From Candidatus Omnitrophota bacterium (GTDB taxonomy: Bacteria; Omnitrophota; Gorgyraeia; Zapsychrales; Zapsychraceae): DNA of 64,000 nt. Shown in pieces: positions 19,765-56,835 of the stretch; the stretch's first letter is position 1; each line of letters begins with the position of its first letter. The notes beneath the pieces are model-generated. The model was not told where the DNA came from. It worked only from the letters and a program-made list of their open reading frames with translations, and ran no database searches. The DNA lies in assembly GCA_028280285.1 (NCBI GenBank), contig JANQMA010000013.1, positions 5,355 through 69,354 of the forward strand. The letters are read 5' to 3'. Position numbers and translations under genes: made by a program.

Positions 19765-19826
19765 AGATAAAACAAATAGGCCTTCACACTATTACATTCC
19801 GCCAGGTATGAGAACGCGTGAAGGCC
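19765..19826 (-). terminator. Candidate intrinsic terminator downstream of the methyltransferase gene
   Basis: 9-bp stem AGGCCTTCAC/GTGAAGGCC (19778-19787 / 19818-19826) with a large loop. A U-rich run follows on the minus strand (plus-strand AAAACAAAT at 19769-19777). Confidence 0.4.
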
Positions 19827-19901
19827 CGACCTCTGTCCTCTTCTTCGCTCTCTATCTTAGCGGTAATTTTTACTTACACAATGCCCAGAATACACCCAAA
19901 A

Positions 19902-20669: not shown

Positions 20670-20674
20670 TCATA

Positions 20675-21127
20675 TTAGTCATCGATGCTGATATCATTGG
20701 GAAAGGCCTTACCTTTACCTGTCTCACAATATTCCTTGAGGCTGAGCATAAAAACAGCCCACTTTGTATTGCAGTGCGCAAAAAAATCAGATTCTTCCGC
20801 CCATCCTGATTGTGCAAACAAAACTTCAGTTTTACCGTCGGCTTCTTCCAAATCAAAGGTCGTAATAGTACCTTTCCATTCCTCTGGGCCTTCCACACAT
20901 TTCCATTTGATAAACTCAGGCGTTACCTCCAAAACTTCCATACCCGGACCACTTTCAGGAAACTTAAAGGTTAATGTTTCCCCCTCCAAGCTTTCCCCCA
21001 CAACGTTTTCTGTCCACCACCCTTTAAGACCGTCGGTAGTCGCAACGGCATCAAAAACTTTCTCCATTGGTGTATTGATTTTTATTTTATGTACTATGTC
21101 TGACATCTTTTGCCCTTTCTTTTTCAA
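20675..21127 (-). CDS. SRPBCC (Bet v1/AHSA1-like) domain protein
   Basis: 150 aa; the pattern (KVFDAVATTDGLKGWW...) matches the AHSA1/START-like superfamily. This is a fold-level call only. Confidence 0.55.
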   Translation of the reverse strand: MKKKGQKMSDIVHKIKINTPMEKVFDAVATTDGLKGWWTENVVGESLEGETLTFKFPESGPGMEVLEVTPEFIKWKCVEGPEEWKGTITTFDLEEADGKTEVLFAQSGWAEESDFFAHCNTKWAVFMLSLKEYCETGKGKAFPNDISIDD

Positions 21128-21140
21128 ATATGTTAAAGCT

Positions 21141-25900: not shown

Positions 25901-28900
25901 TTGCTCTTCCTCAATAAAACGTATATCTTCTCCCATAACAAGCTCGCCATTTTGCATTTCATTATGCATGAAATCTGCTATTTGATATGGTGCATGAACG
26001 CCTTCGAAAAAATGAACCTTTACTTCTTTACCCATCAACTCACTTAGCACCTTTTGCGCAAAAGGAGCAATAGGCCTATTTGTGTATTTTTCAAAATATT
26101 TCTTTTTAATCTCATCATATACGCGTCGCTTCTCCTCGAATCCTTCAGATTCGAACTCTTTAATCAATCTTTCATTTCTTTCTATTTCACCCAATACGTA
26201 TTCATAATGAGCACTCTCAATTCCCTTTTCCTTCATTTCTTTTGATATCTTTGTACGGTGGTTTTCAGCTTTTTGAGGATTTATATTTTCATTTTCCAAC
26301 GCCGTCTTTCTTTTATTTAATACCTTCCGCCTCTTTTGCAACATCGGCAAATAATCACGCATCTCTTTATTAATTTCATCTAAAGGCCTCCCATTATGAG
26401 AAATAACAAAAGCTTTGGCTCCGGCTTCCAGTGCCTGTTTAATTGTGGGTAAGGCAGCCATAAAACGCGCATCAGCATCAATTTTCCCGTTTTTCGCAAC
26501 ACCATTCAAATCGAGACGAATAGTAATAATCTTTCCTTCGATCACAATATTAGGAACATTTTTAAGCTCTAACGCCCTTAAGAGCTCATACAATGTCTTT
26601 TGCTCAAAAATATCTGAAATAGGCGTGGCACGCACATCTTCGCCAATATAGGCATCGATATAGATCTTTTCAATTTGCGCCTGAAGTTTTTTTACTTTAA
26701 GCAACCTTTTACTTGATTTTTCTAAGGACGACCAAGCACCATCTATTGCATCATTGTATCTTTTTCGAGCCTTTTTAAGTTGCCTCAGCAGCCCTCTTAC
26801 CTTACTTGTACCATTTAAAGCGACAAGCTGCTCTTCGCTTAAGGCTTCATTCAATTTATTGCGTTGCTGCAACTGTTCTTGCGTTAATTCATAAATATCA
26901 GATTCATAAACATTAGCCCGTTTTAATCGGTCTCTTAAAATGTCAATCGCCAAATTTCTCTCCGTCTCTTGAACATGCTCATCCGCCGTTAATTCTACAT
27001 ACTTTTTATTTTTCGCCTTGTCTGTATATTTTTGAAAGTAGACGCCATCCGCTGGACTAACAACCCGATACCCTTTTCTTTTAATCGTATCGGTAGCACC
27101 ATTAAAAATTCGGTAATCAATATGAAAAGGATAGCGCCCATGCTTGTGGCCGACGTGCTTGCCCGCCACCCCTTCTTCAGCCAAAATAGCATCAATTTCA
27201 TATGGCACGATCCAGGGCATATCGTTTGGATTAAAGGCACTTTTCCCATGCAAAGGTTTTCCCAATAATTTATTGCGCATATGCCATAAAGCTAAATTGT
27301 GACGCTCTTTAAGAGAAAATTGTTTTTTATAAAATTTAACTTCTATATCTTCAAGAGAATACCCCTCTTCGTCTTCCCTTAATTGAACAAGAGGTAAGGC
27401 CATTTTGTACCACTCATTAAATTTACTCACAAAACTATCAGGAATTTCATTCAGTGAATTATATTTTCCAAGCTCTTCGGCCAACTCTCTTTGAATTCTT
27501 AAAACATTCTCAATGGCTATCCGGTCATCCGGCTCATTAACATGTTTAGCCAAATCGCCATACACACTCTCCGTTGAAAACTCATGCGTATCTAAGATAA
27601 ACCGGGCAATTTCCAAAAGATTGATTTTGTTTCTATATTCTTCTTCATTCTCCGTTTTTTCAGGTTGTTTAAATTCCTTATTAAAGACAGCCGACATAAA
27701 ATCAAGTTCCTTGTTGCCGTGATTATAGTGTACTTTGAGCAAATCACGTGTTTCTTCATCATTAGCCATGACATGCAACTTTTGTAATGTGCGAAAGCTT
27801 CGAAAAATGGTTTCCGCCCTTTTTTCTTCAAACCTTGCTCTTTCTACCGGATCCTCAGTTATTTTATCTAAAGGGTAGTTATCCGGAATGGTAATATTAT
27901 CCCCATCCATAATAACTTCTGTTGGCAGACTCCCTTCTTGCTTTGCCATTTTTTGATCTTCTTCCAATATGTTACGCCGCACATGATTTAATACACCACG
28001 GGTAGGACGATACAAACTATGCCCATCTGAAAAAATAAACACCTCGCGAGCTTCGCCAGGACTAACTTGACTTATAACGCGATTAAAATCCTCTTCCATT
28101 TGTGGATGTTTAAAGCGAGGTTTATGCAATGATTGCCCGTTGGCATTACGCAATGTGACATATTTACGCGCCATTTTTTCACGATGGGCTGGAAGCGGCG
28201 GCATAACAACAGCATCATCACTCCGTTCATCTTTTTTCATCTGATAGCGCCCGGAAACCCGCATAAACTGATTGCTCAGTATATTGCGCGACAATTGGAC
28301 CGGCTCAAGGACGGCCGAATCATACGTACTGTGAGAAAGGCCGATGCCACCGGAGAAATATTTACGTGGCATGATTTGTTGGGAAGCAGGGTCGTACTCT
28401 TCTTTGATATAATCGTAAACGCCTTTGCGATAGGCTTGCAGATACTTTTGGTAAACCTCTTCTTTGGAATTTGGCGCGCCGCTTTCTAAGCCTTGGACCT
28501 TATTTTGGTCAGCGTATTTAGCGGTTAAAATTGAACTTTTAAGCTTGTCTTTATACCAAACCGCTAAGATAAACGAATGATAGATTTGACGTAATGCAGC
28601 GAAATGTTTGCCGCGATTAACCTCCTCTTCGATGATAGGCAAAATAACATCTTTCATCACATCTGTTGAAATCTGTGCAATTTTGGATGCGTCTAACTTG
28701 GAAGGATCATGACGCGTAGAATAATCTTCATGGGCATGAAAATAGGCAAAATAATCTTCTTCGGTCATTACCTTTAAATGGCTATAGGTAATAAAAGCCT
28801 TATTCCTATCTTCATAAATCTTGGCTGTCTCCGGTACGATCCAAATTTTGTTGTACGTATTTAATGGAATATCTGCCAAGCCGTGTTGTTGTTCAGCTCT

Positions 28901-29392
28901 TTGCCGGACTTTGTTCCAAAATTTTTGCCCTAATTCGCTTTCGGGGTAAGTTAAAGACGCACTTAATTGCTTTAAGAGATAATCTTGAAGCAACATATTA
29001 CGTCCAAACTCGGTTACTTCAAGCGTCTCGGTTATAATCCTGTCGTCCTCATATGGCGACAGGTTAACCCAGAGCTCTTCTTCGGGGACAGTTAAAGCGG
29101 CTAGAAAATATTTAATTAACTGTTCGGATTCTTTTGAAACATCAAGCTGCTTAAGATTTTCATCCCCAAGATTAAGAATAAAATCAAAAGCAAAGGGTTC
29201 GTTTGGATTTATAATAATTCCATTTAAGACAGGCGGATTATACGGTTGGCTGACTGAAACAAAAACCCCGGGGGCAGGAACAAATACCTCTTGAGCCGCA
29301 GCATAAGAAGCGAATATGGTTTCAAATAAAAATACCCCGGCTATAAATAAAGATAAAACTTGTTTAGAAATCCGTAAGCCCGGCATACCCAT
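22934..29392 (-). CDS. Giant secreted multidomain protein (about 2150 aa): shared N-terminal module, insertion-split phosphoglycerate-kinase-like fold, C-terminal GHKL ATPase domain, shared C-terminal tail
   Basis: Start reassigned to the internal [34 protein letters not shown] (signal peptide). The ORF-track start at 29443 would overlap the upstream giant gene by 80 nt. PGK-like motifs: [80 protein letters not shown]. GHKL motifs: KDNGIGMD and GQATGMGLA. Confidence 0.7.
   Translation of the reverse strand: [2152 protein letters not shown]
23279..23626 (-). other. GHKL/HATPase_c-like ATP-binding domain at the C-terminus of the giant ORF
   Basis: D-x-G-x-G ([10 protein letters not shown]) and G-x-G-x-G-L ([11 protein letters not shown]) boxes, ending in a [10 protein letters not shown] strand. 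Confidence 0.6.
24494..26566 (-). other. Phosphoglycerate-kinase-like fold embedded in the giant ORF (residues about 960-1650), interrupted by coiled-coil insertions of about 90-150 aa
   Basis: The order and spacing of the PGK signature blocks are preserved: R-x-D-x-N / ALPTI / SHxGRP; then SxAP...L.GKEV...RF..EE; then DAxGTAHR; then the IIGGG and TGGG loops. Confidence 0.6.
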
Positions 29393-32300
29393 CGGATATC
29401 TCACTTTCTCTAGTAGCAAGGTTAATTTTATGATTGGCTTCATACTCCTCGGATCTGTATCCTAATAATTCATAAATAGCCTCCTCATCATAAACTTCAT
29501 CTTTTGTTGTGCGGATCGGCGTCTGTTTAAAATCTTGTGTATTAAGCCCCAGCAGTTGCGGAAGATTAACAGGTGTAATATTTTGAATCACCGGAATAAA
29601 CCCTTTAAGATCAAGATAAATATCCGCCGGCTGCTGTGGTAAAGGCAGCGGCACCCCCTTACCATCACGCTTGATTTGCCATTCAAAGAGATCAGGGTTT
29701 AGGTTAATCCCGCCAAGATCGTCTTCTTGCTTTTGCATTGCCGCCTCATCAGCAGCTTCCTGCCCATATTCTTCTGCTGCCTGTGCGGCCATTTGTTCCA
29801 AACGCGCTTCTCTACGTAACGCTGCCAACTGTGCATTAAGCGGAATGTAAATGGTTTGCTCTTCTGTGCTTTGTTGAAAGGTAATATTCGGATCTTGCGA
29901 ATTAGTATCAACAATGTTCAACAAACTTTCAACATCGCCAAATACTTGATTGATAATATCTATACCGTCTTTTTCCAAGAGTGCTTCTCTCCGCTTAAAA
30001 TCATCGGTTAAATCAAGCCACCACGAGGCAACCCATGGCTCATAATACGGCCTGGATTTGATTTTAATTTGTTCCTTGGAATAAGCGTCCAATATGATTG
30101 TCTTGCGATCATCCGTGTTCGTTTTCATAACCTGGAGCATGCTTGACACAAACTCTCTGAACTCTTCAAGAGTAAGTTTTTCATAAAGATCTTTCCAGGT
30201 AACCTTAAAACTTTTCAAGGCCTGATAAATATCCCGTTCAACCCACACATTTTTATTGTCAGAAAGATTTTCTGCTTTAGCCGCTTCAATTAACGCCGCA
30301 AAACCGTGCTCATAATCAAAATTAGGCAAATCCGAATCCGCCTGCTCCTGAAGCATGGTTGCCCCCATCCTTCGGTCTAATGGATCAGCAGACTTAAGCA
30401 GCTCCCTTGGATCGCCTTCAGCTTCGATTCCTAGACGTAAGAAAATATCATCAACAGTAGCCTGATAATTTTCAAAATCCGGAATCGGCTGCCCTGGCTT
30501 TGAAAAATCATACGGAGCAAAGGCAGCAGCAAACTCGACTTCAGGAACATACGTAATCCCGTTGACCTCTATATGCTCGGAATAACCACTTGTTCTCGTT
30601 AAAAGCAACCGCAAGTCACGCTTAATTTCATTATCGAGAAATAGGTCAATTCTGACAGGAGGATTGCTAAAGTCCATATACCTCGGCCCAAGAATCGCGG
30701 CCTGTTTTACAATCTTAGGCGCCTGGTTGATAAACGGTTTAATAAACGCGTGTAAAATACGCGGATCGTTCGGCTCAACATAACTTTTTGACTCCCTGTC
30801 TCTTTCTTCTGGGTTCAACATATAAATTAATGCCTCAAACGCACTAACAGCAACCAGATCATTAGGCGACTCTGTTCTTTTAAATAAATAATCTAATAAT
30901 TCATTAGCATCAACATCCCTTTTAACAAGCAGCTCGATTTTCTCTCTAAAAATTTCGGGGTTAGTTTCAGAGTCTAAGCTATTAAGCAAATTTGTATCGA
31001 TAATATTTACTCCATCCGGCAAAACATCGAATCTATAATCTTTACGTTGTTTAATAAGCTCAACCCCCAGCATGCGCAGTTGATAATTAGGATGGTTTAT
31101 CATCTGTGCAATATCATCAATTGATCTTACATGAAGAAGAATTAACTCATTTAAGTCTCTAATCCTATCGATCCTTTGCCTATGCGGCCGGTCGCGGTTA
31201 ACATTGGCGCCTTCTTTTCCGACATTGCCATCCTGGCGGATTGTATCTCTCCTGCGCACTCCGCCCCCTCTTTCAAAATGCGTCATCCCTAAAGTTGCTT
31301 TATAACGTATATCCTGATTGCCCTCTTCTTCGTATTCCACTGCTTGGCCAACATTTGGAAAAAAGATATCATTCCATATCCTGAGTTTTTGATATAAAGC
31401 AGCCTTCCTGTTAACTACCGCCTCTCCTGATATACGCGCATCTGAATCATTTTCTAAATCATCGATTTCCCTTACAATCTTTTGAGCATAACCCAGAATC
31501 AAATCGAACATTTTGGTGCGTACTTCGACATTTTCATGTTCCGTTCCCTTATGCACAGCTTCTAGCATATCTCGTTCTTCTTGTGTATTATCAGCCAGCC
31601 ATGCCTTTTCCATAAGAATGGCAGCCGGTATATCCGCACGAGGATCAGTATCATCTGCTGTTCTACGACTGAGCACCTCTTTAGCCGGATTACCTTCCAT
31701 GGCCCCCAAAAGACCAAAAACCTCCTCACGAACAAATGATGGGAAATCTTTATGCGTTGCGCCAACTAAATCATCCGATAAAACACCACTTTTAAATGCA
31801 TCATTGACCATACGATCAAAACTAACCTCTTTATCATCTGCATTTAAAAAATTTCGCGCTATTGTTTCTTTTCGATCTTCATCTCGCACAATTGTATTCC
31901 ATAGATCGGCCGATATACGTAACTCTCTTTCAATATTAAGCAACTCCTCGCCCGCCAAAGGAGTCGGATATAAATTAATCAGTGATTCTGGATTAAGCAC
32001 AGCTAATTGTTTACGTAACTCTCTTCTAACATCTACATTAGCATTATTAAGTGCTTGTTCTCCTAGACGCTCATATCGCTCCAATAAATCTATGATGTAG
32101 GAATAAATATCCTGGCGTTGATCTTTAGCTGTTTTGGCCATCTGACTCAGCGCTCTGATATAACGGATTTGTTGGGGGGTTGCTTCAGGCCCTTTAGTTT
32201 GGGATGCCTTTATGACTCCTCTTTCTATAGCCTCAACATCTATTTTATTCGCAATCCAGTTGATTAAATCAATCGTCCGCCCCTCTACTGAAACATCCTT

Positions 32301-35300
32301 AAGCGTCCCTTCAAACTCAACAGGAGCTAAATTATACTGAAACGCATCATATATGGCGTCTCTGGCCGGCTTATCGAATGCATCTTGTCCCATTTTTTTA
32401 AATTCGCGGTCAATGAGATCTTTAAGACTGTTTGTTTCGCGTGTGGGTGGCTCCTGATTAAGCTTGCGTCTTACCTGGCCAAGCGCCTGAATAGCCTGCA
32501 TCTGTGCTGTTCCATATCTTGCAATACGGATATAAGTCAAAACTGTTTCGCGCTGTTTGCCATACTCAATATCTTTGGCACCGCTGCCGAAAAATACATC
32601 CGCCAAAACATTAAGCGCATCAACATCCCCCATAGCTCCTAACTGGCTAAAATGATGCGCAACATTGGAAAGCTCCCCGGAGGCGATGTCAGCAAAAGTA
32701 ATGCCTTTTGGTTGATACCCGTATCTCTTCAGCCCTCCACGAGCAATATCACGTGTAACAGGATCGTTATTTTGCGTATAGGAAAGAAGCATGACAATCC
32801 GTCTTTGCTTTTGCCGTTCTGTCATATCTGCGTGAGGCGGTTCAGCCATCATCGATGCCATAAACTGATTAAAACTGCGTGCATCAAGACTTCTGATCCT
32901 CTTGCGTGCCTCAAGCAATTTTCTTTTGTTAACCCCTAACTCGGAAAAAACGATATCGTAAAACAGTTTAAACCCAACCGATCTTGGATCAATAAATTCG
33001 GTTGAAATATAACTTGCCAGTAAATGTTCCGCCCCCGCATTAAAAAGCGCCGAATAATAGGTCTGATCCTCCATGCGGTCTAACGCCAGACCAAAAGAAT
33101 TAAGATACAGTAAGCTCTCTTTATCTTGTAGCCCCTTAGCTCTAGCTTGCGCCAATTGATAAATAGCATTTTCAATTATGCTTGTTGTGCCACGCAAGAC
33201 CCGCATAGAAAGAGTTGGGTTATATTCACGGTGTTTTTTCACCAGTGCTTTTTGTGATAAACGCCAATCATTTTCCGTATGAAGCCGGTAGGCCTGTGCG
33301 GCCCTTTCTCTAACCAGTGGATCGGAGTCCCACATCGCATCAATCAAAGCCTGTTTGGCTACCGCCCCACGTACATACGCCAGACGCGTCACCGCCTCGA
33401 TTCTATACTGAACCTTTTCATGTAGCGTTGCAATGCGGGCTAACAATTCCCGCGCCGGTTTACGTACCGGCCTTGCCAATAAACGTGCAGTGCTTACGGC
33501 AAGCCCATAATTTAAATTATCGAGTTCTAACTCATATTCACCTTCAACCCGCACCCAGGGATTGCTCGGAAGGCCTGGCGCAGCAATCGGTCTGGTTATG
33601 TCAATCGTAAAATCTCTCCCTGAAAAGATGAATGATTCGCGGTCTAGATCTGCCCCGCGCAAATTGAGTTCAAAACGCAGACGCTCATGAGCTCTGTCCG
33701 ATAAGGTAGCAACCGTTGCATATCTAGATAATGTTTTTCTATCTCGGTCATAAATCCAATAGGAATCATTCGACATAAACAAAAGCGCGTCGAATGCAGC
33801 CTCAACCTCAATATCATTGTCTGCTCTATTATTGAGCAAAAACCGTTCAATGCCCTCAAAATTAGCCGCTCTTTTACCCTTTATAAATAAAAACGACTCA
33901 CTACGAAGCCCTGAAATCCTTAAGGCCTGAGCAACGGCAAAAGGACTATTACTTTTCTCAATGGTTTCGATCAGAAGCCTGCTGGTATTTTTAGTACGCG
34001 AGCGTTCTAACCATTTACTCACAATCCTTTTTATTGTCTCATTTGTCCCCCCAAGCAAATCAATCAGTCCGCGGACAATGCTTTCGTCTAAATCATTTTT
34101 TGGAAAGAGCTCTGTATATCTTTCAAGCCAGGCATCAGCATACTCCGCAGATTGCGGCCGGTCGCGCATGGCATTGACCATAACAATCGCCGCTTGCCTG
34201 CCTTTTTCTCTGGCCGCATCAGGATTCGCTTTATATGCTTCTTGAAATAATCTATCTAATTCAATTAACTCTTTCAGCGTTTTAGAATCATTTTTTGTCC
34301 GTAAATACTCCTCGATATTATCTTGTGCAATCAAGCTGTCGACATCTGTTATTTCTTCTCTCTGCTGGTAAATTTCCAAATCCCTTGGAGCCGCTTCAAG
34401 AGCCGAACCTCCCGCTACAGCCGTCGCGACAGCAAGCTTGGCGGCCACCGCACCACTTTTTGCGCTTTTTAACAAGCCTGTTATTGCTGCAGCATCAGAA
34501 GCACCGATGAGCTCATTAGCTCTGCTTTCAAGCTCCTTCTTATTATATTTATAGTCTCCTTTATCTTCTCCCTGCTCAGGAAGCTTAATAAAAACGTCTT
34601 CTGTCAGTTTTTGGAACATATAAATAATCAAGTTCTCATAAATATAATAAAAGTCATCCCCGGCCAGCTCCGATAAAAAGACTCGTGTTTTCCCTTTATC
34701 TAAACGGAAATTCGCAAGCCCCATTTTTTCAAACGGTATTTTGGACGCCACTTCCTGCATATGTCGGACTTTTTTTAAATCACTTTCCTCAACATCCTCA
34801 AAATCTTCTTTTTTGAGACTATCCGGAGATTCAATGTCAAAAACTTCAAGCAATAGACGCCCGGCCTCTTCGGTGCCCACATTAACCAGGGCCCTGGCCG
34901 CCATAAGCGTATAAATCATTTTTTCGAAATCAAAAAATGCAATTGTTCCGTTTGGCAAAAGATACTTGCGATAAATCGGCACAAGCCAATTTAAATTGCT
35001 TATCTGTGGGCTTTTGGACTGACGAAAGGATTCATGATAATTTTTGTACTTGCCCGGCGTTTGCGTAAAATAATCGGCAAAATATTGATAAACGGTCTCG
35101 ACTCTACTTGTCTTATTGTCAATTTTCCTGTCAACCACACTCCAAAGCTCTTCGCTTCTTTTATCGATTAATTCATCAAATTTTTCCCGTATGAGTTTAT
35201 CATTATCTTGATCTTTTTTCTTAAACAATCCCCTGATGCTGCGTAATATCCTCTCGACTTCCGCATCTCTCTGTTCACTTAAAACAGGCTCTCTTAGCTC

Positions 35301-38300
35301 CGTTCTTCTCACACCCACACGAGCCGATCTATCCCTTCGCGACCTAATATTAGCCACAAGGTTGTCCTCTTTTGTTTTTTTACGGTTAAAATATCTATTA
35401 ACCAAAATCTTTTGATCTTGCAGTTTTTTAATTGTTTTAAGAAGACTGAGCAGCCACCTACTTTTTTTATCTTTCGCTTTAACAATATTCTCAATAATTT
35501 TTTTTGGTAGTTTTTTTGGATAATTCGCTTCAATTTTTTCAATAAATTTTCGTTTGGCAGCACCACTAAAGCTCTTGCGATAACCCCAAACGAGAACTCC
35601 ACTTAAAAGAAGCACCGTGATCATAGTAGGCACAGTATTTTTAAAAACCTCTTCATTATATGCTTTAGCCTTTAGCCAGCTTTGAAATACAGGATCCCCG
35701 CTGGCGTCCGGGTACACAGAAACAAAGGCCAATAATTCCCCATCTGTTTTAAACTGTTCAGGCTCACTTTTGGCAATCGCCAATATATCCGCATAAAACT
35801 CTTTGATCCTTTGCTCACTGTTTGCCTCTAGGCTATGTAACAGTGTGGTCACATCTTCAATCATGGGTGTCAGTCCCATAGGCTGAATATGCATGTGAAG
35901 ACGAGTAAGGGCTTTACGCTCTTCAACCGGAAGCCTTATGTACGCCTTAAGGTACGCAGCATGCATGTCCTCTTTTTTGACATCTGTATTCTTAAAATAA
36001 TACTCCTTCGCCATCCACAAATAATCATTAAGATCCTCATTGTCGGTTCTTGGCGCTTTCTCAGCCAAAACATAATTTGTTTTAAAAGCCTCTCTGCGCA
36101 CACGAGGCGATTCATGTAAAGTGAACTCAAGCACTAAAGTAAATAACGTTTTATCTCCCAGCTGTTTGATAGCCTCTAAAACATAAAAAGCAAAGGTATT
36201 TCTTCTATCAAGAACATCACGCTTGACATCGGATTGCCGATAAAACCTGAGGATCCCGGAAAGACTGTCTTGCGCTGCAACAGGAAGCGGAACGCGATAC
36301 AACCCGATAATAGAAAAATAGGCAATAAGTATGGCAACGGCAATGCCAACACCTATCATGGTAATTCTTTGTATCGAATCAAGGGTTAAGTCCCAACTCC
36401 TATCCCCTTCGTTGCGTTCATTTATTTTGTTAAATTTTTTGTTTGTTTTTACTTTACTTCTCCAATCACGAAACCTTTTCCATTGCCGTCCGGGCCATTG
36501 CCATAAGGTTGCTAAAGCAGATAGCATAGCATTATCCTTAGTTGGCGGCTTCTCATGCAGACTTTCATCGATATCGCGTAAAATATTGACTAATTGTAAT
36601 TGTTGAGAGCGCTCAGGTACTTCTACAATTGTGGCAATAGTTATATCTTGATCAGTTTTTTTTGATTGAGCCTCCGACTCAGTATTAGCCTGTCCTTTTT
36701 GTTTTTTATCAAAATCAATCTGGTCAATTATCCCTTGTATCTCGGTCGCCCCCCCTGTCACGATCATAAAAATAGTCTTTTCCGATTCCATCATCCTAAG
36801 TAATTGCCCGGAGACAGTATCTTGAGAGCTTATTTGATTTTTTTTCTTAAAAACCTGCAGCTGTGCGAGTGTTGTTGCACGTTGAGGATAAATGTATTCA
36901 ATACGTTCAATCCCAAATCGGTTAAACACTTCCGCTGTATATTGAACGGCATTGGCTGGAATAACTAATAATGTCTTGGACCCATCAGCAATGCCGTTAT
37001 AATGACCTTCTGTAAACCCCTTTTCTTTATAAAACGTTTCATGAAATGCAAATTGATTTTTAACCTTTTGCCAAATCGCCAACTCCTCAAAATAGCGCGC
37101 TTTATCTTCCACATCACCTTCTATAGCTTGAGGGATTACATCGACAAATCTTTGAATATCCATTGAATTGACGCGCATTCGTAACGCAAGGAGTGCAACT
37201 GCCTTTCTTTCTTCATAGGTAAGTGAACCATAATAATCCGTCAAGATTTCATAAACCAGGCCATTTAAAAAGTCTCTTAATTCGGTATCAGTCTCTAAAT
37301 CAACTGCGGATTTGCCCGTTTGCTGTTCATACTGTTGCAGCTCCTCGGCCGTGGACTCCCATCGGGTAAGATTGGTGAAGATATCATTGAGCTCTGTATC
37401 AAGTATCATATTCTGAGCGGCTAGATACTCCATAAGCGGCATAAGTGCAGGAACAACAATAGACTTAAGCTGTACCCCGACAGCTTCCACACCTTCTTTT
37501 TGTTTATCCAGTGTTTGATTTTTTTGCAGAACATTAACCAAATTGATAAGATATCCAGACATTGACAAATTATCCGCCGCCCCCTCAATAATGAGATTTT
37601 CAACAAGCTCATGCGGAAGGCGCGCCTTGTACCTGCCTGTCTTTTCTTCAAAACTCAAATCCCTTGAATCCTGTGGAACAAGAAATTCCCCCAGGCTTGG
37701 GGTGCCCAATACAATAAAGGCTGTCATAAGCGTTGCATTTGCTAATGTAAGGCGTATAGAAGCCCCGTACACAAACCGATAAAGCCAACTTTTTTCTTCA
37801 ACCACCGGGCGAGATCTGACATAAAAAGCCCCTAAAAAAAGTACAATTAACGCTCCAATGACAACGGAAACTGTTCCTGCCCTTATATCTTCTTTAAGGG
37901 TTTTAATTATTTTGAAAAAAAACACGTCTGTATTATTGGACATCCACCTCCCGTAACTGTTTTCAAACCAGTACATCGAACTTATCGCTTTATATACAAA
38001 TCCGTCTCTTAATGCAGCTGTTCTACTTTGGTTTTTAATATTTTGCTCCTCAGCGGCTATGCGCTGCCTTGTCAGTCGTTTAAAATTCTCTAACCTTTCT
38101 TCGTCACTTAAGCCATTGTCAGGTTTATTTTTGAGCAATTTATCTGAAAATACCCACATTTCATCTTTGACTGCCTTTCTAAGATCATTGGAAGGCCGCC
38201 GCAATAATTCCACGGTTTTTTGTAAAGCCTTTGGGTCAACCCCTCTGGCATACTCCTGTCTAAAAGCAAGATTAGAAATAACATTCTTCACAACAGGATC

Positions 38301-40049
38301 CGTCAGATCTGATACCGATTCGTCACGCGCAATCATTGGATGAAAAGCATCCATCGCCGACTGAAAATATTCCGTTTGCTCCTCTGTAAAGTCATCATAA
38401 GTTAGATTATTGTATAAAGTAATCGACTTTTGTCTTTTCTCAAGAAGCTCCGCATAAATATCAACTTCTTCATATTGAGGTGGATTGGTAATAGCCTTAT
38501 GCGGGTAAGCTATAAAAGAAAGCGCACCCCAAGCACTAGCTAGCGCAACTAACACACTTCCGACAAGATAAGCAGGTGTTAATGCAAATCGTTTTACCTT
38601 TCTTGGCCTATCTACAACCGCATTATCAACTTCGTTTTTTTCTTCAGGCGCCGTAACTTCAATAACTTCCTGTATCGGCTCAACATCTAGATCAGCCTTT
38701 TTGATTTCCTGAAATTTTTCTTCAGCAGTTTTATTCTCAGGTGCATCGTTACTTTGCCAACTCATACGCACCTGTGTATTAATATCCAGCGATGCTGTTC
38801 CTTTTTTGCCCCCATTATCTTTTGTCACCTCAACCAGGCGGGTGTTGACGCGCGAAACATTTTCATCGCTTTGGGCAAAGCTAAATTTTTGCCCCCAATT
38901 CAAATTATCAAAATCCGTTTCAATCCGGACATTGGTATCCCCAAACGCAGGATTGGCCAGCGCCTGCAAATCAAGCCCGCCAGAGAAGTATTTCCGTGCC
39001 ACAATTTCCTGTTTTTGCGGATTGTACTCTTCCCTGATCAAATCAAAGACGCCTTGCTTAAACCCTTCAAGGTAGTGATCATAAATCTTCCGGCTGATTT
39101 GCTTGTCTTCTGTATCAACGCCTTCTGTTTTGCCGCGATCCACATAAAGCTGACTTAATAAACTCGTCTTAAGCTTTTTCTTATACCAGCCGGCAAGGAC
39201 CAAAGAATGAACAATCTGTCTTAATGACGCGAATGCCTCGCCATGGTTGATCTCATGCTCAATTTCCGGAATAATCACTGCGCGGACAATATCAGAAATG
39301 TTGGATGCCGCCGGCTCATCGCTAAGCCGGGCATGATTGGTATTTTTATCCGAGACCACATAATCTTCTTCCAGCATGGCCTTAAGCGTGCATTCAACCA
39401 CATAGGCGCTTGTGCCGTCCTCATAGATCGTTGCTTTATCGGGGACAATCCACACCTTATTAAAGGCATTGACCGGCATATTTTGATCACCGTATTGAGC
39501 GTGAATGCGTTCGTTGATACGCTCCCAAAGTTTGGCGCCAATCGAATCGGTTGTGTCATCCGGATACATCAAAGAGGCTGTCATCTGCTTAAGGACATAA
39601 TCCTGAGCCAGCACATCGCGCCCCATCAATGTATCGCCAAAAGAATCGGCAATGATGCGATCAGGCTCATCGGGCGAAAGGTTGACCCATAACTCGTTTT
39701 CGGGAATGGTTAGTGAGGCAAGAAAGTATTTGATTAACTTTTTGGCTTCGGCTTGAAAGCCTTGATCATTATTAAAATTAGTATCTCCATGATCAATAAT
39801 AAAATCAAGCTCCAAAGGATTTTCCGGATGGACGATCACGCCACGCATGAACATCGGTGTCATCGGGGCAGACTGAGTCATCATTTCCCCGACAGGAGGC
39901 AGTTTTAACACATGCGCTGGTTGTGGAACAGGAAGGCTTTGGGCCTGGGCATACTCAGGGCCAATAATTGACTGCACACCAAAGGTAAGCAGCAAAATAT
40001 AAACAATCCCCTTAAAAGAAATACTTTTTTTGTGATTTTGGAATAACAT
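29364..40049 (-). CDS. Giant (3561 aa) signal-peptide-bearing, multi-pass membrane alpha-solenoid protein; shares N-terminal module and C-terminal tail with the downstream giant ORF
   Basis: Signal peptide MLFQNHKKSISFKGIVYILLLTFGVQSIIG. At least 5 hydrophobic transmembrane-like helices are scattered through the protein (e.g. LVGSVLVALASAWGALSFIAY, TVSVVIGALIVLFLGAFYV, MIGVGIAVAILIAYFSIIGLY, TMITVLLLSGVLVWGY). It carries HEAT/PBS-type repeats (DSDPLVRERAAQAY) and is predominantly helical. No catalytic motif recognised. Confidence 0.7.
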   Translation of the reverse strand: MLFQNHKKSISFKGIVYILLLTFGVQSIIGPEYAQAQSLPVPQPAHVLKLPPVGEMMTQSAPMTPMFMRGVIVHPENPLELDFIIDHGDTNFNNDQGFQAEAKKLIKYFLASLTIPENELWVNLSPDEPDRIIADSFGDTLMGRDVLAQDYVLKQMTASLMYPDDTTDSIGAKLWERINERIHAQYGDQNMPVNAFNKVWIVPDKATIYEDGTSAYVVECTLKAMLEEDYVVSDKNTNHARLSDEPAASNISDIVRAVIIPEIEHEINHGEAFASLRQIVHSLVLAGWYKKKLKTSLLSQLYVDRGKTEGVDTEDKQISRKIYDHYLEGFKQGVFDLIREEYNPQKQEIVARKYFSGGLDLQALANPAFGDTNVRIETDFDNLNWGQKFSFAQSDENVSRVNTRLVEVTKDNGGKKGTASLDINTQVRMSWQSNDAPENKTAEEKFQEIKKADLDVEPIQEVIEVTAPEEKNEVDNAVVDRPRKVKRFALTPAYLVGSVLVALASAWGALSFIAYPHKAITNPPQYEEVDIYAELLEKRQKSITLYNNLTYDDFTEEQTEYFQSAMDAFHPMIARDESVSDLTDPVVKNVISNLAFRQEYARGVDPKALQKTVELLRRPSNDLRKAVKDEMWVFSDKLLKNKPDNGLSDEERLENFKRLTRQRIAAEEQNIKNQSRTAALRDGFVYKAISSMYWFENSYGRWMSNNTDVFFFKIIKTLKEDIRAGTVSVVIGALIVLFLGAFYVRSRPVVEEKSWLYRFVYGASIRLTLANATLMTAFIVLGTPSLGEFLVPQDSRDLSFEEKTGRYKARLPHELVENLIIEGAADNLSMSGYLINLVNVLQKNQTLDKQKEGVEAVGVQLKSIVVPALMPLMEYLAAQNMILDTELNDIFTNLTRWESTAEELQQYEQQTGKSAVDLETDTELRDFLNGLVYEILTDYYGSLTYEERKAVALLALRMRVNSMDIQRFVDVIPQAIEGDVEDKARYFEELAIWQKVKNQFAFHETFYKEKGFTEGHYNGIADGSKTLLVIPANAVQYTAEVFNRFGIERIEYIYPQRATTLAQLQVFKKKNQISSQDTVSGQLLRMMESEKTIFMIVTGGATEIQGIIDQIDFDKKQKGQANTESEAQSKKTDQDITIATIVEVPERSQQLQLVNILRDIDESLHEKPPTKDNAMLSALATLWQWPGRQWKRFRDWRSKVKTNKKFNKINERNEGDRSWDLTLDSIQRITMIGVGIAVAILIAYFSIIGLYRVPLPVAAQDSLSGILRFYRQSDVKRDVLDRRNTFAFYVLEAIKQLGDKTLFTLVLEFTLHESPRVRREAFKTNYVLAEKAPRTDNEDLNDYLWMAKEYYFKNTDVKKEDMHAAYLKAYIRLPVEERKALTRLHMHIQPMGLTPMIEDVTTLLHSLEANSEQRIKEFYADILAIAKSEPEQFKTDGELLAFVSVYPDASGDPVFQSWLKAKAYNEEVFKNTVPTMITVLLLSGVLVWGYRKSFSGAAKRKFIEKIEANYPKKLPKKIIENIVKAKDKKSRWLLSLLKTIKKLQDQKILVNRYFNRKKTKEDNLVANIRSRRDRSARVGVRRTELREPVLSEQRDAEVERILRSIRGLFKKKDQDNDKLIREKFDELIDKRSEELWSVVDRKIDNKTSRVETVYQYFADYFTQTPGKYKNYHESFRQSKSPQISNLNWLVPIYRKYLLPNGTIAFFDFEKMIYTLMAARALVNVGTEEAGRLLLEVFDIESPDSLKKEDFEDVEESDLKKVRHMQEVASKIPFEKMGLANFRLDKGKTRVFLSELAGDDFYYIYENLIIYMFQKLTEDVFIKLPEQGEDKGDYKYNKKELESRANELIGASDAAAITGLLKSAKSGAVAAKLAVATAVAGGSALEAAPRDLEIYQQREEITDVDSLIAQDNIEEYLRTKNDSKTLKELIELDRLFQEAYKANPDAAREKGRQAAIVMVNAMRDRPQSAEYADAWLERYTELFPKNDLDESIVRGLIDLLGGTNETIKRIVSKWLERSRTKNTSRLLIETIEKSNSPFAVAQALRISGLRSESFLFIKGKRAANFEGIERFLLNNRADNDIEVEAAFDALLFMSNDSYWIYDRDRKTLSRYATVATLSDRAHERLRFELNLRGADLDRESFIFSGRDFTIDITRPIAAPGLPSNPWVRVEGEYELELDNLNYGLAVSTARLLARPVRKPARELLARIATLHEKVQYRIEAVTRLAYVRGAVAKQALIDAMWDSDPLVRERAAQAYRLHTENDWRLSQKALVKKHREYNPTLSMRVLRGTTSIIENAIYQLAQARAKGLQDKESLLYLNSFGLALDRMEDQTYYSALFNAGAEHLLASYISTEFIDPRSVGFKLFYDIVFSELGVNKRKLLEARKRIRSLDARSFNQFMASMMAEPPHADMTERQKQRRIVMLLSYTQNNDPVTRDIARGGLKRYGYQPKGITFADIASGELSNVAHHFSQLGAMGDVDALNVLADVFFGSGAKDIEYGKQRETVLTYIRIARYGTAQMQAIQALGQVRRKLNQEPPTRETNSLKDLIDREFKKMGQDAFDKPARDAIYDAFQYNLAPVEFEGTLKDVSVEGRTIDLINWIANKIDVEAIERGVIKASQTKGPEATPQQIRYIRALSQMAKTAKDQRQDIYSYIIDLLERYERLGEQALNNANVDVRRELRKQLAVLNPESLINLYPTPLAGEELLNIERELRISADLWNTIVRDEDRKETIARNFLNADDKEVSFDRMVNDAFKSGVLSDDLVGATHKDFPSFVREEVFGLLGAMEGNPAKEVLSRRTADDTDPRADIPAAILMEKAWLADNTQEERDMLEAVHKGTEHENVEVRTKMFDLILGYAQKIVREIDDLENDSDARISGEAVVNRKAALYQKLRIWNDIFFPNVGQAVEYEEEGNQDIRYKATLGMTHFERGGGVRRRDTIRQDGNVGKEGANVNRDRPHRQRIDRIRDLNELILLHVRSIDDIAQMINHPNYQLRMLGVELIKQRKDYRFDVLPDGVNIIDTNLLNSLDSETNPEIFREKIELLVKRDVDANELLDYLFKRTESPNDLVAVSAFEALIYMLNPEERDRESKSYVEPNDPRILHAFIKPFINQAPKIVKQAAILGPRYMDFSNPPVRIDLFLDNEIKRDLRLLLTRTSGYSEHIEVNGITYVPEVEFAAAFAPYDFSKPGQPIPDFENYQATVDDIFLRLGIEAEGDPRELLKSADPLDRRMGATMLQEQADSDLPNFDYEHGFAALIEAAKAENLSDNKNVWVERDIYQALKSFKVTWKDLYEKLTLEEFREFVSSMLQVMKTNTDDRKTIILDAYSKEQIKIKSRPYYEPWVASWWLDLTDDFKRREALLEKDGIDIINQVFGDVESLLNIVDTNSQDPNITFQQSTEEQTIYIPLNAQLAALRREARLEQMAAQAAEEYGQEAADEAAMQKQEDDLGGINLNPDLFEWQIKRDGKGVPLPLPQQPADIYLDLKGFIPVIQNITPVNLPQLLGLNTQDFKQTPIRTTKDEVYDEEAIYELLGYRSEEYEANHKINLATRESEISDGYAGLTDF

Positions 40050-40227: not shown

Positions 40228-40272
40228 TGGGTTTTAGGTTTCAGCCTCCTAACACCCAACACCTAAAACCTT
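40228..40272. repeat. 10-bp perfect inverted repeat GGTTTTAGGT...ACCTAAAACC immediately 3' of surface protein A
   Basis: Stem GGTTTTAGGT (40228-37) / ACCTAAAACC (40263-72); TAGG/CCTA-rich. Confidence 0.4.
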
Positions 40273-43200
40273 AAGGATTAGGATGGGTTATATGACCTTC
40301 TTGATCGACCAAATATATTTGGCCATAGTAGTAAATCTTCCACGCCGGATAAAAGAAGCTCCCCTCGATATAAACCAACTCCAGCTCAGCCCCTTGCATC
40401 ATTGTACGAATAAATTCTCTTCGTTCTTTGCGCGTTAAATCTTTTTGCAATAACTTTGATAAAAGACGCAGTGCTTTGCGTTTATTAACCGGCAAATATT
40501 TAATCGGTTCGCGAACCCAGGTGACTTCACGAAAAGCACCACTATCGGCATCAACAATGGCGATGACAACTGTTCTTTTCTTTAATGTTTTTCTTAGCTT
40601 TTTAAATATTTGTTTTTTCTCTTTGCGTTCTTCTCCGCTACGCAGCTTTACACTATCAGAATCATCATCTTTAAATTCGGTCACTGTTCGTGTCATACGC
40701 TCCTTCAACTTATCTTCATCCAACGGCTTATCAAACGCAACCAGATAGTAATCGCCTTTTTCCGACGAGACATAAAGCGGCTTGCGCGCAATAGTGTTTT
40801 TAAATATTTGCGCAAAGTCTTCGTCGTATGGAACCAATTGCTCTTCAATGCCATCCACGGCCGCTTGAATAATAACAAATGCATCTTCATCAATGTGATC
40901 ACGCACATAAACATTTTTTTCTGAACCATTTTCGAGCTCAATTGTTTTAAGTTGTAGGAAATTTTCAATGCGCTTTTTAAAACGAGGTTTGGCTTTAACA
41001 ACCCGCGCTTTATTTTCTGTTTTGGGCGGCTCAACAACCGCAACAAATTTGTTGAAATTTTGTTCTGTTGGATCAATTTTAGTCAACGGCAAATAATAAT
41101 TTTGGACAAACTGCTCGGCCGTTACAAATGTATTTTCACCAATACCTGACGGGGCTGGATCATTGATCCAAAAGCCGTGAATACCATAATCCTCGGCGGT
41201 AAAAGGGTCGTCCGTAGCCCGAACCCCTTTGACAACAACCCAGTTATTATAGTCCCCGCCAAACGGCACAGCTGCCGGAATATACACCGGATGACCGTCA
41301 ACACCCGATCCAAACGGATTGTCGCTCCCGCCACCAGCGGGATAAGACACCCATTTAGCAATTTCATTAAGTGCTTCTTCTTGAGTTGCAAGTGACTTCA
41401 TGCCGAAGTTGTAATGATAAGGAACAAAATCCGGATCGAGATTCTGAATCACTTTCCAAAGCCCGCGCATATCAAGGGCATTTAAATCGTCATTTACGCC
41501 GTAGTTAAACGGCTCGCCGAATTGAAATAATAGCTCCTGATTGCTGAGCTGCTCATCAAACAATTCCGGCGGACCATCTGGATGGTCGAACCGGTTCCAC
41601 CACATATATTGAATCAACATCTTGGCCACCGCCGGACCGCTGAATTTTTCAACCGGATCAGTACCGTTATCAAGCGACCGGACATACGGAAACTTATCGG
41701 CATTAAGAACAAAGTCTTCTGACTCAACCTCAATGAAAAAACTTTGTGTATCCGTGCCGCCATTGCCGTCATCGGCAGTGATAGTTAATTCGTACTTGCC
41801 GATATCTTCTTCCTTAGGCGTCCATTCAAAAAGACCGGTTGTGCCGTCAAAAGACGCATCGCCTGGCAGATTATTGAGCGCAAGAGCTACACTATCGCCA
41901 TCTTCATCGAAAACGCTGATAGTAAAACTCAAGGTTTGACCGACTTTAATTGTTTGATCACCAGGCCCATCGATCACAGGCGGCGCATTAACAACGATAT
42001 TTTTAACCGTTAAGGTAATTGTCTCAAAATCTTCTAATTCTCCGTCGCTGACAGTAAAAGTGATTTGATATGTGCTGTCTTCATCGAGCTCCGGGGCATT
42101 GGCAATAAATGTGTTATCAACAAAGCTCATCCAAGACTCAAGACCTTGGGCTGAAAAGATTAAAGTATCTCCATCAGGATCAGAACCACTAAGTGTAAAA
42201 TTAAGTGAAGCACCTTCATTAACGTTCTTATCACCAATTGAATCGAGCATTGGCGCTCGGTTAACATTACCTACACTGATTGTAATTGTTTCACTATCAG
42301 TGAGAGACCCATCGCTCGCTGTAAACGTAACACTATAATTACCTTCATCGCCAACGTCAGGATTCGCCGCAAAAGAAGTACCATCAAAGCTCATCCAATC
42401 TTCAAGGGCATTTGTTGAAATACTAACCCCATCGCCATCCGGGTCAGAGGTCGTTACATTAAAACTCAAATTACCGCCCTCTTCGACACTTTTATTGCCA
42501 ATCGTATCCAATACCGGCGCACGGTTTGTATTATTCACCGTTATGACAATAGTCTCTGCATCTGTGCCGCCGTTACCATCATCCGCTGTAAACGTAACAT
42601 TGTAGCTACCCGCATCATTAAAACCAGGGGTAGCCGAAAAGCTAGAACCATCAAAACTCATCCATGATACAAGACCTGAAGCTTCAATGATCACATCATC
42701 CCCATCCAGATCCGTTGCATTAACAGTGAAGTTTAATACTTCCGATTCATTAACAGACCTATTACCAATCGCACCTAAGACAGGCGGTGTATTACTAAAC
42801 TTATCAGTGACAGTAATTGTGATCGTTTCTGAATCTGTTCCGTCACGCCCATCATCCACCGTAAAGGTTACATCATATGCACCGGATTGCGTGGTCGTTG
42901 GTGTCCAGGTAAAGATGCGCGTGGCCGTATCAAAAATTGCACCGACGGGAAGATTGGTTGCCGAAAAAGAAAGCGGGTCGCTGTCAGCGTCTGACCCCGA
43001 AACAGTGAACCTAAGAAGCCCTTCTTCCTCAACCGTCTTATCTCCGATTGAGTTTAGTACCGGCTGAGTGTTAGCTTTTGCTGTAACCGTTATAGTAATT
43101 GTCTCTGAGTCCGTGCCGCCGCCACCGTCGCTGACATTAAATGTCACTTGATGTGTGCCGACCTGGGATGCAAGCGGCGTCCAGAAAAATGTATTGGTGG

Positions 43201-48845: not shown

Positions 48846-48871
48846 TTTCTAACCTACCCCCGAACCCAACT

Positions 48872-52660: not shown

Positions 52661-52706
52661 TATATTTTCCTCGATTGATAACAGCTTTGATCGAATCATA
52701 TATTAT

Positions 52707-52920
52707 TTATTCTTCCACTGGAAATTTATCGATAAATGTCACTGTAAATTGTGCAATTAACGCCGCATCCAGAGCATTGATTCTTCCGTCACCGCTTACA
52801 TCCGCACGCACTTGCGCATCCGGATCAAGCGTAATGAATGTAACGGTATGCTGCGCCGTTAATGCCGCATCAAGCGCATTAATTGTTCCATTATTATTGA
52901 CATCGCCATAAGCGATATCG
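52707..52920 (-). other. Dockerin module (two 22-residue F-hand segments)
   Basis: GDVNNNGTINALDAALTAQHTVTFITLDPDAQVRADVSGDGRINALDAALIAQFTVTFI. Confidence 0.8.
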
Positions 52921-55334: not shown

Positions 55335-55491
55335 GACAATAATTCCCTTTTCTTTTTTGAAATGATTAAATCGAAATTTAATTCTTCAGGCAGTATTTTC
55401 CCCCAATACCGCGCAGTCTTCGGATTCTACACTTCAACTATAATTTTCCTATATGAAAACCGTATGGCAATTATGTGAAAATACTGTGAAA

Positions 55492-56766: not shown

Positions 56767-56835
56767 AAGATGTCGTTATCACAGTTGTCTACCCTTGGAA
56801 ACTCAAACACAAAGTATTTGAATAAAACAGGATTA

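Follow-up and report, generated by a model that had tools for sequence, protein, structure and literature searches.

We analysed a 64,000-nucleotide stretch of DNA (hereafter the window; positions 5,355 to 69,354 of contig JANQMA010000013.1, GenBank assembly GCA_028280285.1) from Candidatus Omnitrophota bacterium, and in it a 3561-aa open reading frame (ORF) on the minus strand at 29364..40049. It is a single, genuine gene from an uncultured member of the Omnitrophota, and its product is most likely a HEAT-type alpha-solenoid that is tethered to the membrane and has no enzymatic function. The protein family to which it belongs is very large, present in several copies per genome and restricted to Omnitrophota; its members are built from a signal peptide, a conserved head, a variable middle and a conserved tail. 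In this member the middle consists of a fast-evolving segment of about 1,100 aa that bears transmembrane (TM) helices and a HEAT-like solenoid of about 1,900 aa. The role that we favour, if tentatively, is that of an envelope-embedded scaffold that may anchor or organise the surface attachment apparatus encoded upstream. All coordinates below are positions in the window, the parts of the ORF and the adjacent and upstream genes being on the minus strand, and residue numbers are those of the ORF.

The ORF starts with ATG and covers 10,686 nt including the stop codon, 16.7% of the window, which agrees with the length and the share of about 17% given in the original prediction, a description made from the DNA letters alone. 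Over eleven consecutive windows of 300 codons its frame contains no stop codon, against 9 to 44 per window in the two other frames. The composition by codon position is steady along its length (GC1 0.47-0.58, GC2 0.30-0.42, GC3 0.33-0.48, with GC1 above GC2 and GC3) and the purine share at codon position 1 is uniform at 0.59-0.70. The identical protein is found on the 70,735-bp NCBI contig and on contig SRR20820735_31581 (44,270 bp) of a second, separate Logan assembly of run SRR20820735. Three orthologs come from other samples (P0003 with 3589 aa, P0002 with 3897 aa and P0004 with 4903 aa; the ORF itself is P0001). Profiles of ordinary genes were not found inside the ORF with Pfam and NCBIfam, including 500-aa segments searched against Pfam at E ≤ 5. 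Because the coding signal is uniform and two independent contigs carry the same protein, the ORF is very unlikely to be an assembly chimera or to join ordinary genes, and the outcome of the assembly check that had been proposed for it favours a single gene. A blastp comparison of the protein with itself revealed no internal (recent) repeats, and promoter and terminator scans at both gene ends scored no better than shuffled sequence.

The chain opens with a Sec-type signal peptide (aa 1-36; 39942..40049), identified by hydropathy and manual inspection, with a basic n-region (K7, K8, K13), an h-region at aa 14-30 and a predicted cleavage site AQA/QS. On the Kyte-Doolittle (KD) scale with a 19-aa window the N-terminal hydrophobic segment covers aa 12-30 and is followed by AQA/Q. 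This arrangement resembles the signal peptide of a porin encoded in the same window, which ends in SYA/Q, and among 140 relatives a hydrophobic N-terminus is present in 129 and an AxAQ-type motif in 104, so that the secretory signal claimed earlier is kept across the family. Next comes the family head (about aa 37-372; 38934..39941), which ends in RKYFSGG and holds the only cysteine of the protein, C220. AlphaFold2 (AF2) models the head as an alpha/beta structure with long helices at moderate confidence (predicted local distance difference test, pLDDT, of 67); the sequence gave no match in Pfam, NCBIfam or the PDB, nor did the model give one when compared with the PDB by Foldseek. At the other end the family tail (aa 3446-3503; 29541..29714), detected with a tail hidden Markov model (HMM), begins with GGINLNP and is followed by a C-terminal extension (aa 3504-3561; 29367..29540) that varies between family members. 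The head and the tail are both shared with the adjacent gene at 22934..29443, as had been stated, at 43% identity over about 330 aa and 47% over 60 aa respectively. This paralog overlaps the end of the ORF and encodes 2169 aa (2152 aa from an internal Met in the Logan call) with a head, phosphoglycerate kinase (PGK) and HATPase_c domains, a tail and no cysteine.

Two more familiar identities for these end modules were considered and rejected. The tail does not fit a tail-anchor TM segment or a CTERM sorting signal, being Pro-rich and only moderately hydrophobic (its hydrophobic 19-mer has a median KD of 1.59 and 3 Pro) with an acidic extension behind it (about 33 residues, net negative in 79% of members), and NCBIfam models of PEP-CTERM, GlyGly-CTERM and LPXTG-type C-terminal sorting signals gave 0 matches in the ORF. 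The head does not fit a two-partner secretion (TPS), autotransporter or lipoprotein module: a lipobox Cys and a Pfam match are both lacking and the model is alpha/beta, and Pfam finds neither of the type V secretion features, an N-terminal TPS beta-helix and a C-terminal beta-barrel, in the ORF.

The five predicted TM helices all sit within aa 488-1490, in a region (aa 440-1639; 35133..38732) that is a fast-evolving sequence orphan. An exhaustive phmmer search of this region against 1.84 billion representatives returned only the protein itself, and phmmer against 119 family members gave nothing significant. The helices were called by KD hydropathy with a 19-aa window together with manual inspection, and were compared in an alignment of the orthologs. 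TM-a (aa 488-516, core 495-513, KD 2.01; 38502..38588) is preceded by the basic stretch DRPRKVKR. TM-b (aa 726-744, KD 2.47; 37818..37874) and the weaker TM-c (aa 763-791, KD 1.55; 37677..37763) are the two arms of a conserved hairpin, the loop of which, RSRPVVEEKSWLYRF (aa 745-759; 37773..37817), is basic in all four orthologs. TM-d (aa 1232-1250; 36300..36356) is the most hydrophobic helix (KD 2.52), and TM-e (aa 1472-1490, KD 1.63; 35580..35636) is followed by the basic stretch RKSFSGAAKRKFIEK. Ahead of TM-d lies a weak hydrophobic patch that we call d' (aa 1174-1187, AMLSALATLWQWPG) with a conserved basic stretch behind it (RQWKRFRDWRSKVKTNKKFNK, aa 1188-1208; both within 36426..36530); in P0003 the segment aligned to d' is plainly a TM, and in P0004 it is a hydrophobic stretch.

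In the MAFFT alignment of the ORF with its three orthologs (about 22-26% identity) the helices a to e share columns in P0001-P0003 (TM-a 600-629; hairpin b 947-970 and c 990-1018; TM-d 1651-1680; TM-e 2007-2040), and in P0004 a, d and e appear as weaker hydrophobic stretches. The orthologs also keep four basic stretches, one each ahead of TM-a and TM-d, one in the hairpin loop and one behind TM-e. Since the columns of the helices are kept amid otherwise undetectable similarity, the helices appear to be a selected feature of a fast-evolving sequence and, judged from the alignment, their occurrence is not due to chance. Indeed the predicted helices (five, or seven in some orthologs) and their basic flanks are the only features that the alignment reveals as conserved in this segment. 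The claim of at least five widely spaced hydrophobic helices is thus borne out by five strong segments in the same columns. Four of the five positions proposed were correct; the one at 1170-1190 is only the weak 14-aa patch, and the strongest helix at aa 1232-1250 had been missed.

Behind the TM segment lies a conserved alpha-solenoid body (about aa 1680-3400; 29850..35012) with about 22% identity to P0002, P0003 and P0004 in the alignment. The sole curated Pfam match of the ORF is HEAT_2 (PF13646) at aa 2187-2254 (33288..33491; E=2e-6), a marginal one with 28.4 bits against a gathering cut-off of 27.7, and weaker HEAT_2 matches lie at aa 1290-1323 (36081..36182; E=0.0063) and aa 2766-2805 (31635..31754; E=0.00077). 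HEAT_2 is detected in 4/4 orthologs with a best E of 1.6e-19. The motif that had been quoted as typical of HEAT repeats is found at aa 2223-2254 (its actual text is LAYVRGAVAKQALIDAMWDSDPLVRERAAQAY) and falls inside the best match. We modelled one third of the protein, aa 1900-3099 (30753..34352), with AF2 on the four-sequence alignment. Helix makes up 67% of the model, which has 58 helices (median 13 aa) and two small beta insertions. This upholds the description of an almost entirely helical interior for the modelled segment, to which the figure is limited. Its mean pLDDT is 60.9, with 476 residues at 70-90, and its predicted TM-score (pTM) is 0.30. Foldseek comparison of this model with the PDB gave 139 matches at E ≤ 0.001, and the best 50 were almost all HEAT/ARM-type solenoids (CAND1, RanBP5, karyopherin-beta2, CRM1, UTP10/20, SF3B1, mTOR), with E down to 4.5e-7 and probability 1.00. 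The TM-scores are low (0.09-0.19), which is to be expected from the flexibility of superhelices and the moderate quality of the model. No catalytic domain was found in the ORF with Pfam, NCBIfam or the 500-aa Pfam segments at E ≤ 5, as the original prediction had anticipated in reporting no catalytic signature.

The interior of the ORF is common to only three other proteins, P0002, P0003 and P0004, at 21-24% identity over roughly aa 1680-3500. A profile search with the four orthologs recovered no further members of this subfamily. A word-indexed search with the interior only (aa 441-3400) found only the protein itself; such an index cannot reach relatives at 22% identity. Conservation differs sharply by segment, from 38-52% identity for the head across 119 relatives to about 22% for the solenoid and to an undetectable level for the TM region.

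Upstream of the ORF we found a co-directional cluster (40271..60393) of surface proteins, all of which carry an N-terminal signal peptide. According to Pfam it comprises three paralogous cohesin and He_PIG/Big_9 immunoglobulin-like (Ig) repeat proteins (40271-52699), a protein with five LTD domains and a dockerin (52707-55334), a Porin_5 protein (55492-56766) and an LTD/CotH/CHB_HEX_C_1 protein (56836-60393). The presence of cohesin and dockerin in one cluster suggests a cellulosome-like surface assembly. Parts of this arrangement recur at the ortholog loci: the locus of P0004 (L082, 1-29110) encodes LTD/CotH/CHB_HEX_C_1, Porin_5, LTD and He_PIG, and He_PIG/Big_9 proteins, then the ortholog and two LTD proteins; the locus of P0002 (L083, 1-9990) encodes cohesin/He_PIG/Big_9, LTD and LTD/NosD proteins and then the ortholog; the locus of P0003 (L081, 1-2748) has a Big_9/He_PIG protein cut by the contig end and then the ortholog. 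A Big_9/He_PIG Ig-repeat gene is thus immediately upstream and on the same strand in 4/4 loci. LTD genes occur in three loci (the window, L082 and L083), cohesin in two (the window and L083), and CotH and Porin_5 in two (the window and L082) in the same order in both. The subfamily gene is the last of the block, or next-to-last or earlier where downstream genes follow, and the downstream genes are not conserved among the ortholog loci. That gene order persists where the proteins are only about 22% identical speaks for a functional link with a surface adhesion-type apparatus.

The family to which the ORF belongs is defined by its ends. A search with the whole protein gave 931 matches in 5.8 billion protein clusters, nearly all restricted to the first 10% or so of the query, that is the head, and the named matches derive from Candidatus Omnitrophota/Omnitrophica metagenome-assembled genomes (MAGs) or from a hydrothermal-vent metagenome. 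A profile search gave 919 protein clusters at E ≤ 1e-100. The head alignment, run against species-representative genomes, marked at least 573 loci, and the best 80 of these all belong to Omnitrophota MAGs or to MAGs titled 'uncultured Planctomycetales', 'Planctomycetales bacterium' or 'bacterium'. Loci such as L006, L007, L009, L012, L014 and others, in which head genes with 46-52% identity lie in 'uncultured Planctomycetales bacterium' MAGs, are probably from Omnitrophota under a coarse or outdated label. Several copies per genome are found (at least 7 of the listed loci come from isolate OFTM38) and in 21 of the 79 loci there are two to four ORFs with a head in tandem. HMMs made from the head (about aa 37-372) and the tail (aa 3446-3503; family consensus GGIDxNP...GF.PVI.NITP...LLGL) detect both modules in 138 of the 140 retrieved proteins, the head always single and N-terminal and the tail always single and C-terminal. 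The span from head to tail in the loci ranges from 660 to at least 3500 aa, the upper figure being set by the flank fetched, and the retrieved proteins reach 5808 aa. Clustering of 722 ORFs that flank family genes in 79 loci gave no conserved neighbour, the commonest cluster being present in 7 loci, so that neither a transporter nor a chaperone dedicated to the family came to light. The tail motif (GGIDLN, GGIDFN and variants) was not found in a literature search, and a keyword search of the available Omnitrophota long-protein literature returned no mention of these bookends.

What lies between the bookends is highly diverse. Many middles are without any Pfam match. Others contain enzymes of glycolysis and carbon metabolism (PGK, TPI, GAPDH, enolase, phosphoglucomutase, PGI, aldolases, FBPase, PPDK/PEP synthase, PEPCK, isocitrate lyase and malate synthase), receiver domains, AAA ATPases, an SNF2 helicase or HEAT repeats. 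Many are thus cytoplasm-type, ATP-dependent enzymes or domains despite the Sec-type signal peptide in front of them, a puzzle that, together with the extreme shortage of cysteine described below, bears on where the glycolytic domains of Omnitrophota long proteins work. We also observed that some signal-peptide-bearing family proteins of 2,000-3,000 aa (P0009, P0042, P0077, P0116, P0128 and others) carry public names such as 'phosphoglycerate kinase', 'triose-phosphate isomerase', 'glucose-6-phosphate isomerase' and 'fructose-bisphosphate aldolase'. Pathway-completeness calls for Omnitrophota may rest in part on such embedded enzyme domains, which is a warning for metabolic reconstruction. A miniature member at locus L006 (an ORF of 869 aa from base 300 on the plus strand) repeats the design of the ORF on a small scale: behind its signal peptide and head it has a single TM whose C-flank is basic, then clear PBS-lyase-type HEAT repeats, and also an acidic DDADDD stretch and the tail.

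A further trait of the family is the near absence of cysteine. In the ORF C220 is the only one in 3561 aa, none occurring in aa 221-3561, and the 140 family proteins together have 229 in 404,663 residues (0.057%). In the surface proteins encoded upstream, which bear signal peptides, Cys makes up 0-0.47%. A comparison set of sixteen window ORFs that show no evident N-terminal signal, one integral-membrane protein and one HAMP histidine kinase included, reaches 1.35% (67 Cys in 4957 aa). As low Cys content tracks export in this organism, the whole 3561-aa chain behaves as exported by that proxy. In the GAPDH-carrying members P0028 and P0086 the only Cys outside the signal peptide is in or beside the catalytic SCTT(N/G) motif, and P0071 (4729 aa) has the SCTT(N/G) Cys and three others. 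P0028 and P0071 have another residue in place of the usual second Cys of ASCTTNC. This residue pattern suggests that the domains may be active enzymes under strong selection against Cys, as exported proteins are.

How might such a protein work? In the role that we favour the signal peptide would place the head beyond the cytoplasmic membrane, the TM helices would staple the chain into that membrane and the solenoid would offer a long surface for protein docking. The protein could thereby anchor or organise a surface attachment apparatus of the kind thought to be used by host- or prey-dependent Omnitrophota. Several observations weigh against this proposal. What links the protein to the upstream products is synteny only, and the synteny comes from n=4, the only subfamily members known. 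The solenoid model is of moderate confidence, as its pLDDT, pTM and TM-scores indicate. The topology is a further difficulty. With a cleaved signal peptide and five spans the C-terminal 2,070 aa or so would be cytoplasmic, and the basic C-flank of TM-e agrees with this, but the basic residues on the N-flank of TM-a and in the hairpin loop would then lie outside, in violation of the positive-inside rule. P0003 and P0004 have two extra hydrophobic segments each, one before TM-a and one before TM-d; in the ORF the first of these is absent and the second corresponds only to the weak patch at aa 1174-1187. The seven helices of P0003 satisfy the positive-inside rule throughout with the head out and the C-terminus in, and theirs is the only fully self-consistent pattern. 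A cytoplasmic solenoid is hard to reconcile with the lack of Cys in aa 221-3561 and with the TM-less paralogs, in which the tail would be outside. The tail cannot keep one constant side because most paralogs have no internal TM and others have one or two. The proposal of large soluble domains on both sides of the membrane was reasonable from the odd number of helices, but the flanking charges in this protein conflict with one another and the whole chain is purged of cysteine like exported proteins.

In one alternative the ORF would be a polytopic inner-membrane protein with its C-terminal HEAT solenoid of about 2,070 aa and the tail in the cytoplasm, a transmembrane adaptor or signalling scaffold in which a periplasmic head senses or binds and the solenoid recruits partners, so that its main role would lie inside the cell. 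We consider this unlikely, though it is the alternative that fares best. The number of TM helices is odd in all four orthologs (5 or 7), TM-e has a basic C-flank in P0001, P0003 and P0004, the pattern of P0003 fits as described, and the 869-aa member of L006 joins its head to HEAT repeats and a tail through a single TM with a basic C-flank. Histidine kinase, response regulator and GGDEF genes are moreover present downstream in the window, but these signalling genes are not syntenic in the ortholog loci. The 0 Cys in aa 221-3561 compare with about 28 expected in the C-terminal 2,071 aa at the cytoplasmic rate of the window, and the extra helices required for a consistent topology are missing or degenerate in P0001 and P0002. 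According to West-Roberts et al. (2023, 10.1101/2023.11.21.568195) the HEAT repeats of the giant relatives were reported only in predicted extracellular regions.

It has also to be asked if the chain crosses the membrane altogether. As a secreted delivery or translocator protein it would be exported whole, with head and tail as export or translocation modules loosely comparable to the conserved arms of MARTX toxins, and the hairpin and helices would insert into the membrane of a prey or host. The conserved bookends around a highly variable middle in hundreds of paralogs, many of which combine a signal peptide with ATP-dependent cytoplasm-type enzymes, the family-wide cysteine purge (0.057%) that spares only the catalytic Cys, and the conserved hydrophobic hairpin would all suit this idea, as would the predatory or parasitic lifestyle that parts of the literature propose for the phylum. 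Strongly hydrophobic helices, however, act as Sec stop-transfer anchors, and helices with a KD of about 2.5 are expected to be caught by the Sec translocon in this way. Neither a secretion system nor any other conserved neighbour was found beside family genes in the 79 loci, toxin, RTX and protease domains were not found with Pfam and NCBIfam, and the basic flanks of P0003 follow an inner-membrane-like pattern. We regard this explanation as improbable. One may speculate further that head and tail serve as the invariant delivery parts of a polymorphic cargo system in Omnitrophota, in which the Sec signal, head and tail would export cytoplasm-type enzymes to the surface or into a host or prey cell. 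The candidate cargo would be PGK, GAPDH (with only the catalytic Cys kept), TPI, PGM, PPDK, receiver domains, AAA ATPases and helicases, in hundreds of paralogs per clade, and the TM/HEAT member would be a membrane-embedded docking or translocation component encoded with the adhesion apparatus. This broader scheme is a long shot; if true, such a strategy of protein delivery or extracellular metabolism would be without a described counterpart.

That the ORF is a precursor polyprotein, cut after export into a head module, membrane pieces and a solenoid, appears very unlikely to us. Cleavage of giant Omnitrophota proteins by embedded C39/S8 peptidase domains was proposed by West-Roberts et al., and the sharp differences in conservation between head (38-52%), solenoid (about 22%) and TM region (undetectable) would be in keeping with separate products; on the other hand Pfam and NCBIfam find no peptidase domain in the ORF or its neighbour, no recognisable repeated cleavage motif was found, and head and tail are always on one ORF. 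An artefact, which the great length of the ORF on a metagenome-assembled contig and the lack of database matches over most of it might suggest, is the least credible explanation by far given the uniform periodicity with zero in-frame stops through 10.7 kb, the recovery of the same protein by a second assembler, orthologs of similar length that are colinear for head, TM pattern, solenoid and tail, and the want of Pfam or NCBIfam matches to ordinary genes inside it.

Omnitrophota are widespread, uncultivated, host-dependent nanobacteria, and their giant membrane proteins are among the largest known and of a function that is not understood. Giant ORFs with many TM helices were described for the phylum by Seymour et al. 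(2023). Such proteins, rich in HEAT repeats and with glycolytic domains, were named 'Archaeovorins', their type being the 39,678-aa protein of Velamenicoccus archaeovorus (West-Roberts et al. 2023, bioRxiv 10.1101/2023.11.21.568195). Across this literature the long proteins of Omnitrophota mostly bear a signal peptide or TM helices, contain HEAT scaffolding and are linked to attachment. As described there, the Archaeovorins share with the ORF their Omnitrophota origin, an N-terminal signal peptide, widely spaced TM helices and HEAT repeats, which are their commonest domain, and a role in cell-surface attachment was proposed for them as we propose it here. The ORF is about ten times smaller (3,561 aa against tens of thousands) and differs in that the Archaeovorin C39/S8 peptidase, glycosyltransferase and TPR domains were not found in it (Pfam, E ≤ 5 on 500-aa segments), nor were a type II/IV-like secretion locus upstream and PilZ downstream (Pfam, window ORFs of at least 150 aa, 64 kb). 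It carries the head and tail modules, for which a keyword search of West-Roberts et al. returned no mention.

A catalogue of 916 long Omnitrophota proteins, 39% of which have a signal peptide and TM helices together with HEAT scaffolding, is given by Nielsen & Lui (2026, bioRxiv 10.64898/2026.06.07.730766). As outlined there, this 'SP+TM' class resembles the ORF in its HEAT 'scaffolding', in a signal peptide and scattered TM helices, which in the ORF are predicted from hydropathy and manual inspection, and also in being flanked by extracellular, pilus or carbohydrate-active enzyme (CAZyme)-type genes and not by import clusters. The proteins described have at least 10,000 aa against 3,561 aa here, and the densest giant has about 1 TM per 370 aa against 5 per 3,561 aa in the ORF. 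No mention was found in the searched passages of that paper of a conserved TM pattern, of the bookends or of Ig-repeat/LTD/CotH synteny. The ORF is thus a smaller, undescribed relative of the giant membrane/HEAT proteins of Omnitrophota, to which it adds the bookends, a positionally conserved module of 5-7 TM helices and synteny with Ig-repeat, LTD, CotH and porin genes. Its architecture as such would not surprise a specialist, and at 3,561 aa it is a tractable small-scale version of the giants. The conserved TM pattern, the modelled solenoid and the position at the end of the gene cluster give a concrete form to the anchor or organiser hypothesis.

Likenesses to better known systems are more distant. 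The best matches of the aa 1900-3099 model, such as CAND1, importin-beta/karyopherins, CRM1, UTP10/UTP20 and SF3B1, are likewise arrays of short helical hairpins that serve as protein-docking scaffolds, but with 9-13% identity, TM-scores of 0.09-0.19 and neither signal peptide nor TM on the eukaryotic side the likeness is one of fold class only. To PBS-lyase/HEAT_2 (PF13646) proteins the ORF is related by three recognisable repeat patches in 3,561 aa, with no lyase context. MARTX toxins, which run to several thousand residues, have a variable central array between conserved N- and C-terminal regions; they use type I secretion without a Sec signal and contain glycine-rich RTX-like repeats and a cysteine protease domain. 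The head/tail family follows the same bookend logic around a variable middle; the ORF differs in having a Sec-type signal peptide, and RTX repeats and a cysteine protease domain were not found in it with Pfam and NCBIfam. Finally, the cohesin-dockerin assemblies of cellulosomes have a cell-bound anchoring scaffoldin. With cohesin-bearing Ig-repeat proteins and a dockerin-bearing LTD protein encoded upstream the ORF would parallel such a membrane-bound organiser, although Pfam finds no cohesin, dockerin or SLH domain in it.

The rest of the window holds several genes that we note in passing. Neither tRNA genes nor Rfam families at gathering score were found in the 64 kb. Directly downstream of both family genes the window encodes a response regulator, a GGDEF diguanylate cyclase, a methyltransferase, an AHSA1-like protein and a HAMP histidine kinase, and further on a hybrid kinase (17728-22817 and 9238-10446); PilZ was not seen among window ORFs of at least 150 aa. 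A link of cyclic di-GMP (GGDEF/PilZ) to giant genes is made by West-Roberts et al. (2023, 10.1101/2023.11.21.568195). An ORF of 1113 aa at 4983-8324 has an N-terminal hydrophobic segment, a weak coiled-coil-type Pfam match (TMF_TATA_bd) and 2 Cys, at least 1 of them near the N-terminus, and may be another exported structural protein. A stand-alone SET-domain protein of 165 aa (8354-8851), of possible interest as a bacterial SET-domain protein in a host-dependent organism, and a Sir2-family protein of 251 aa (62608-63363) are also encoded. The large genes of the window are on the minus strand bar one and the GC skew is steadily negative.

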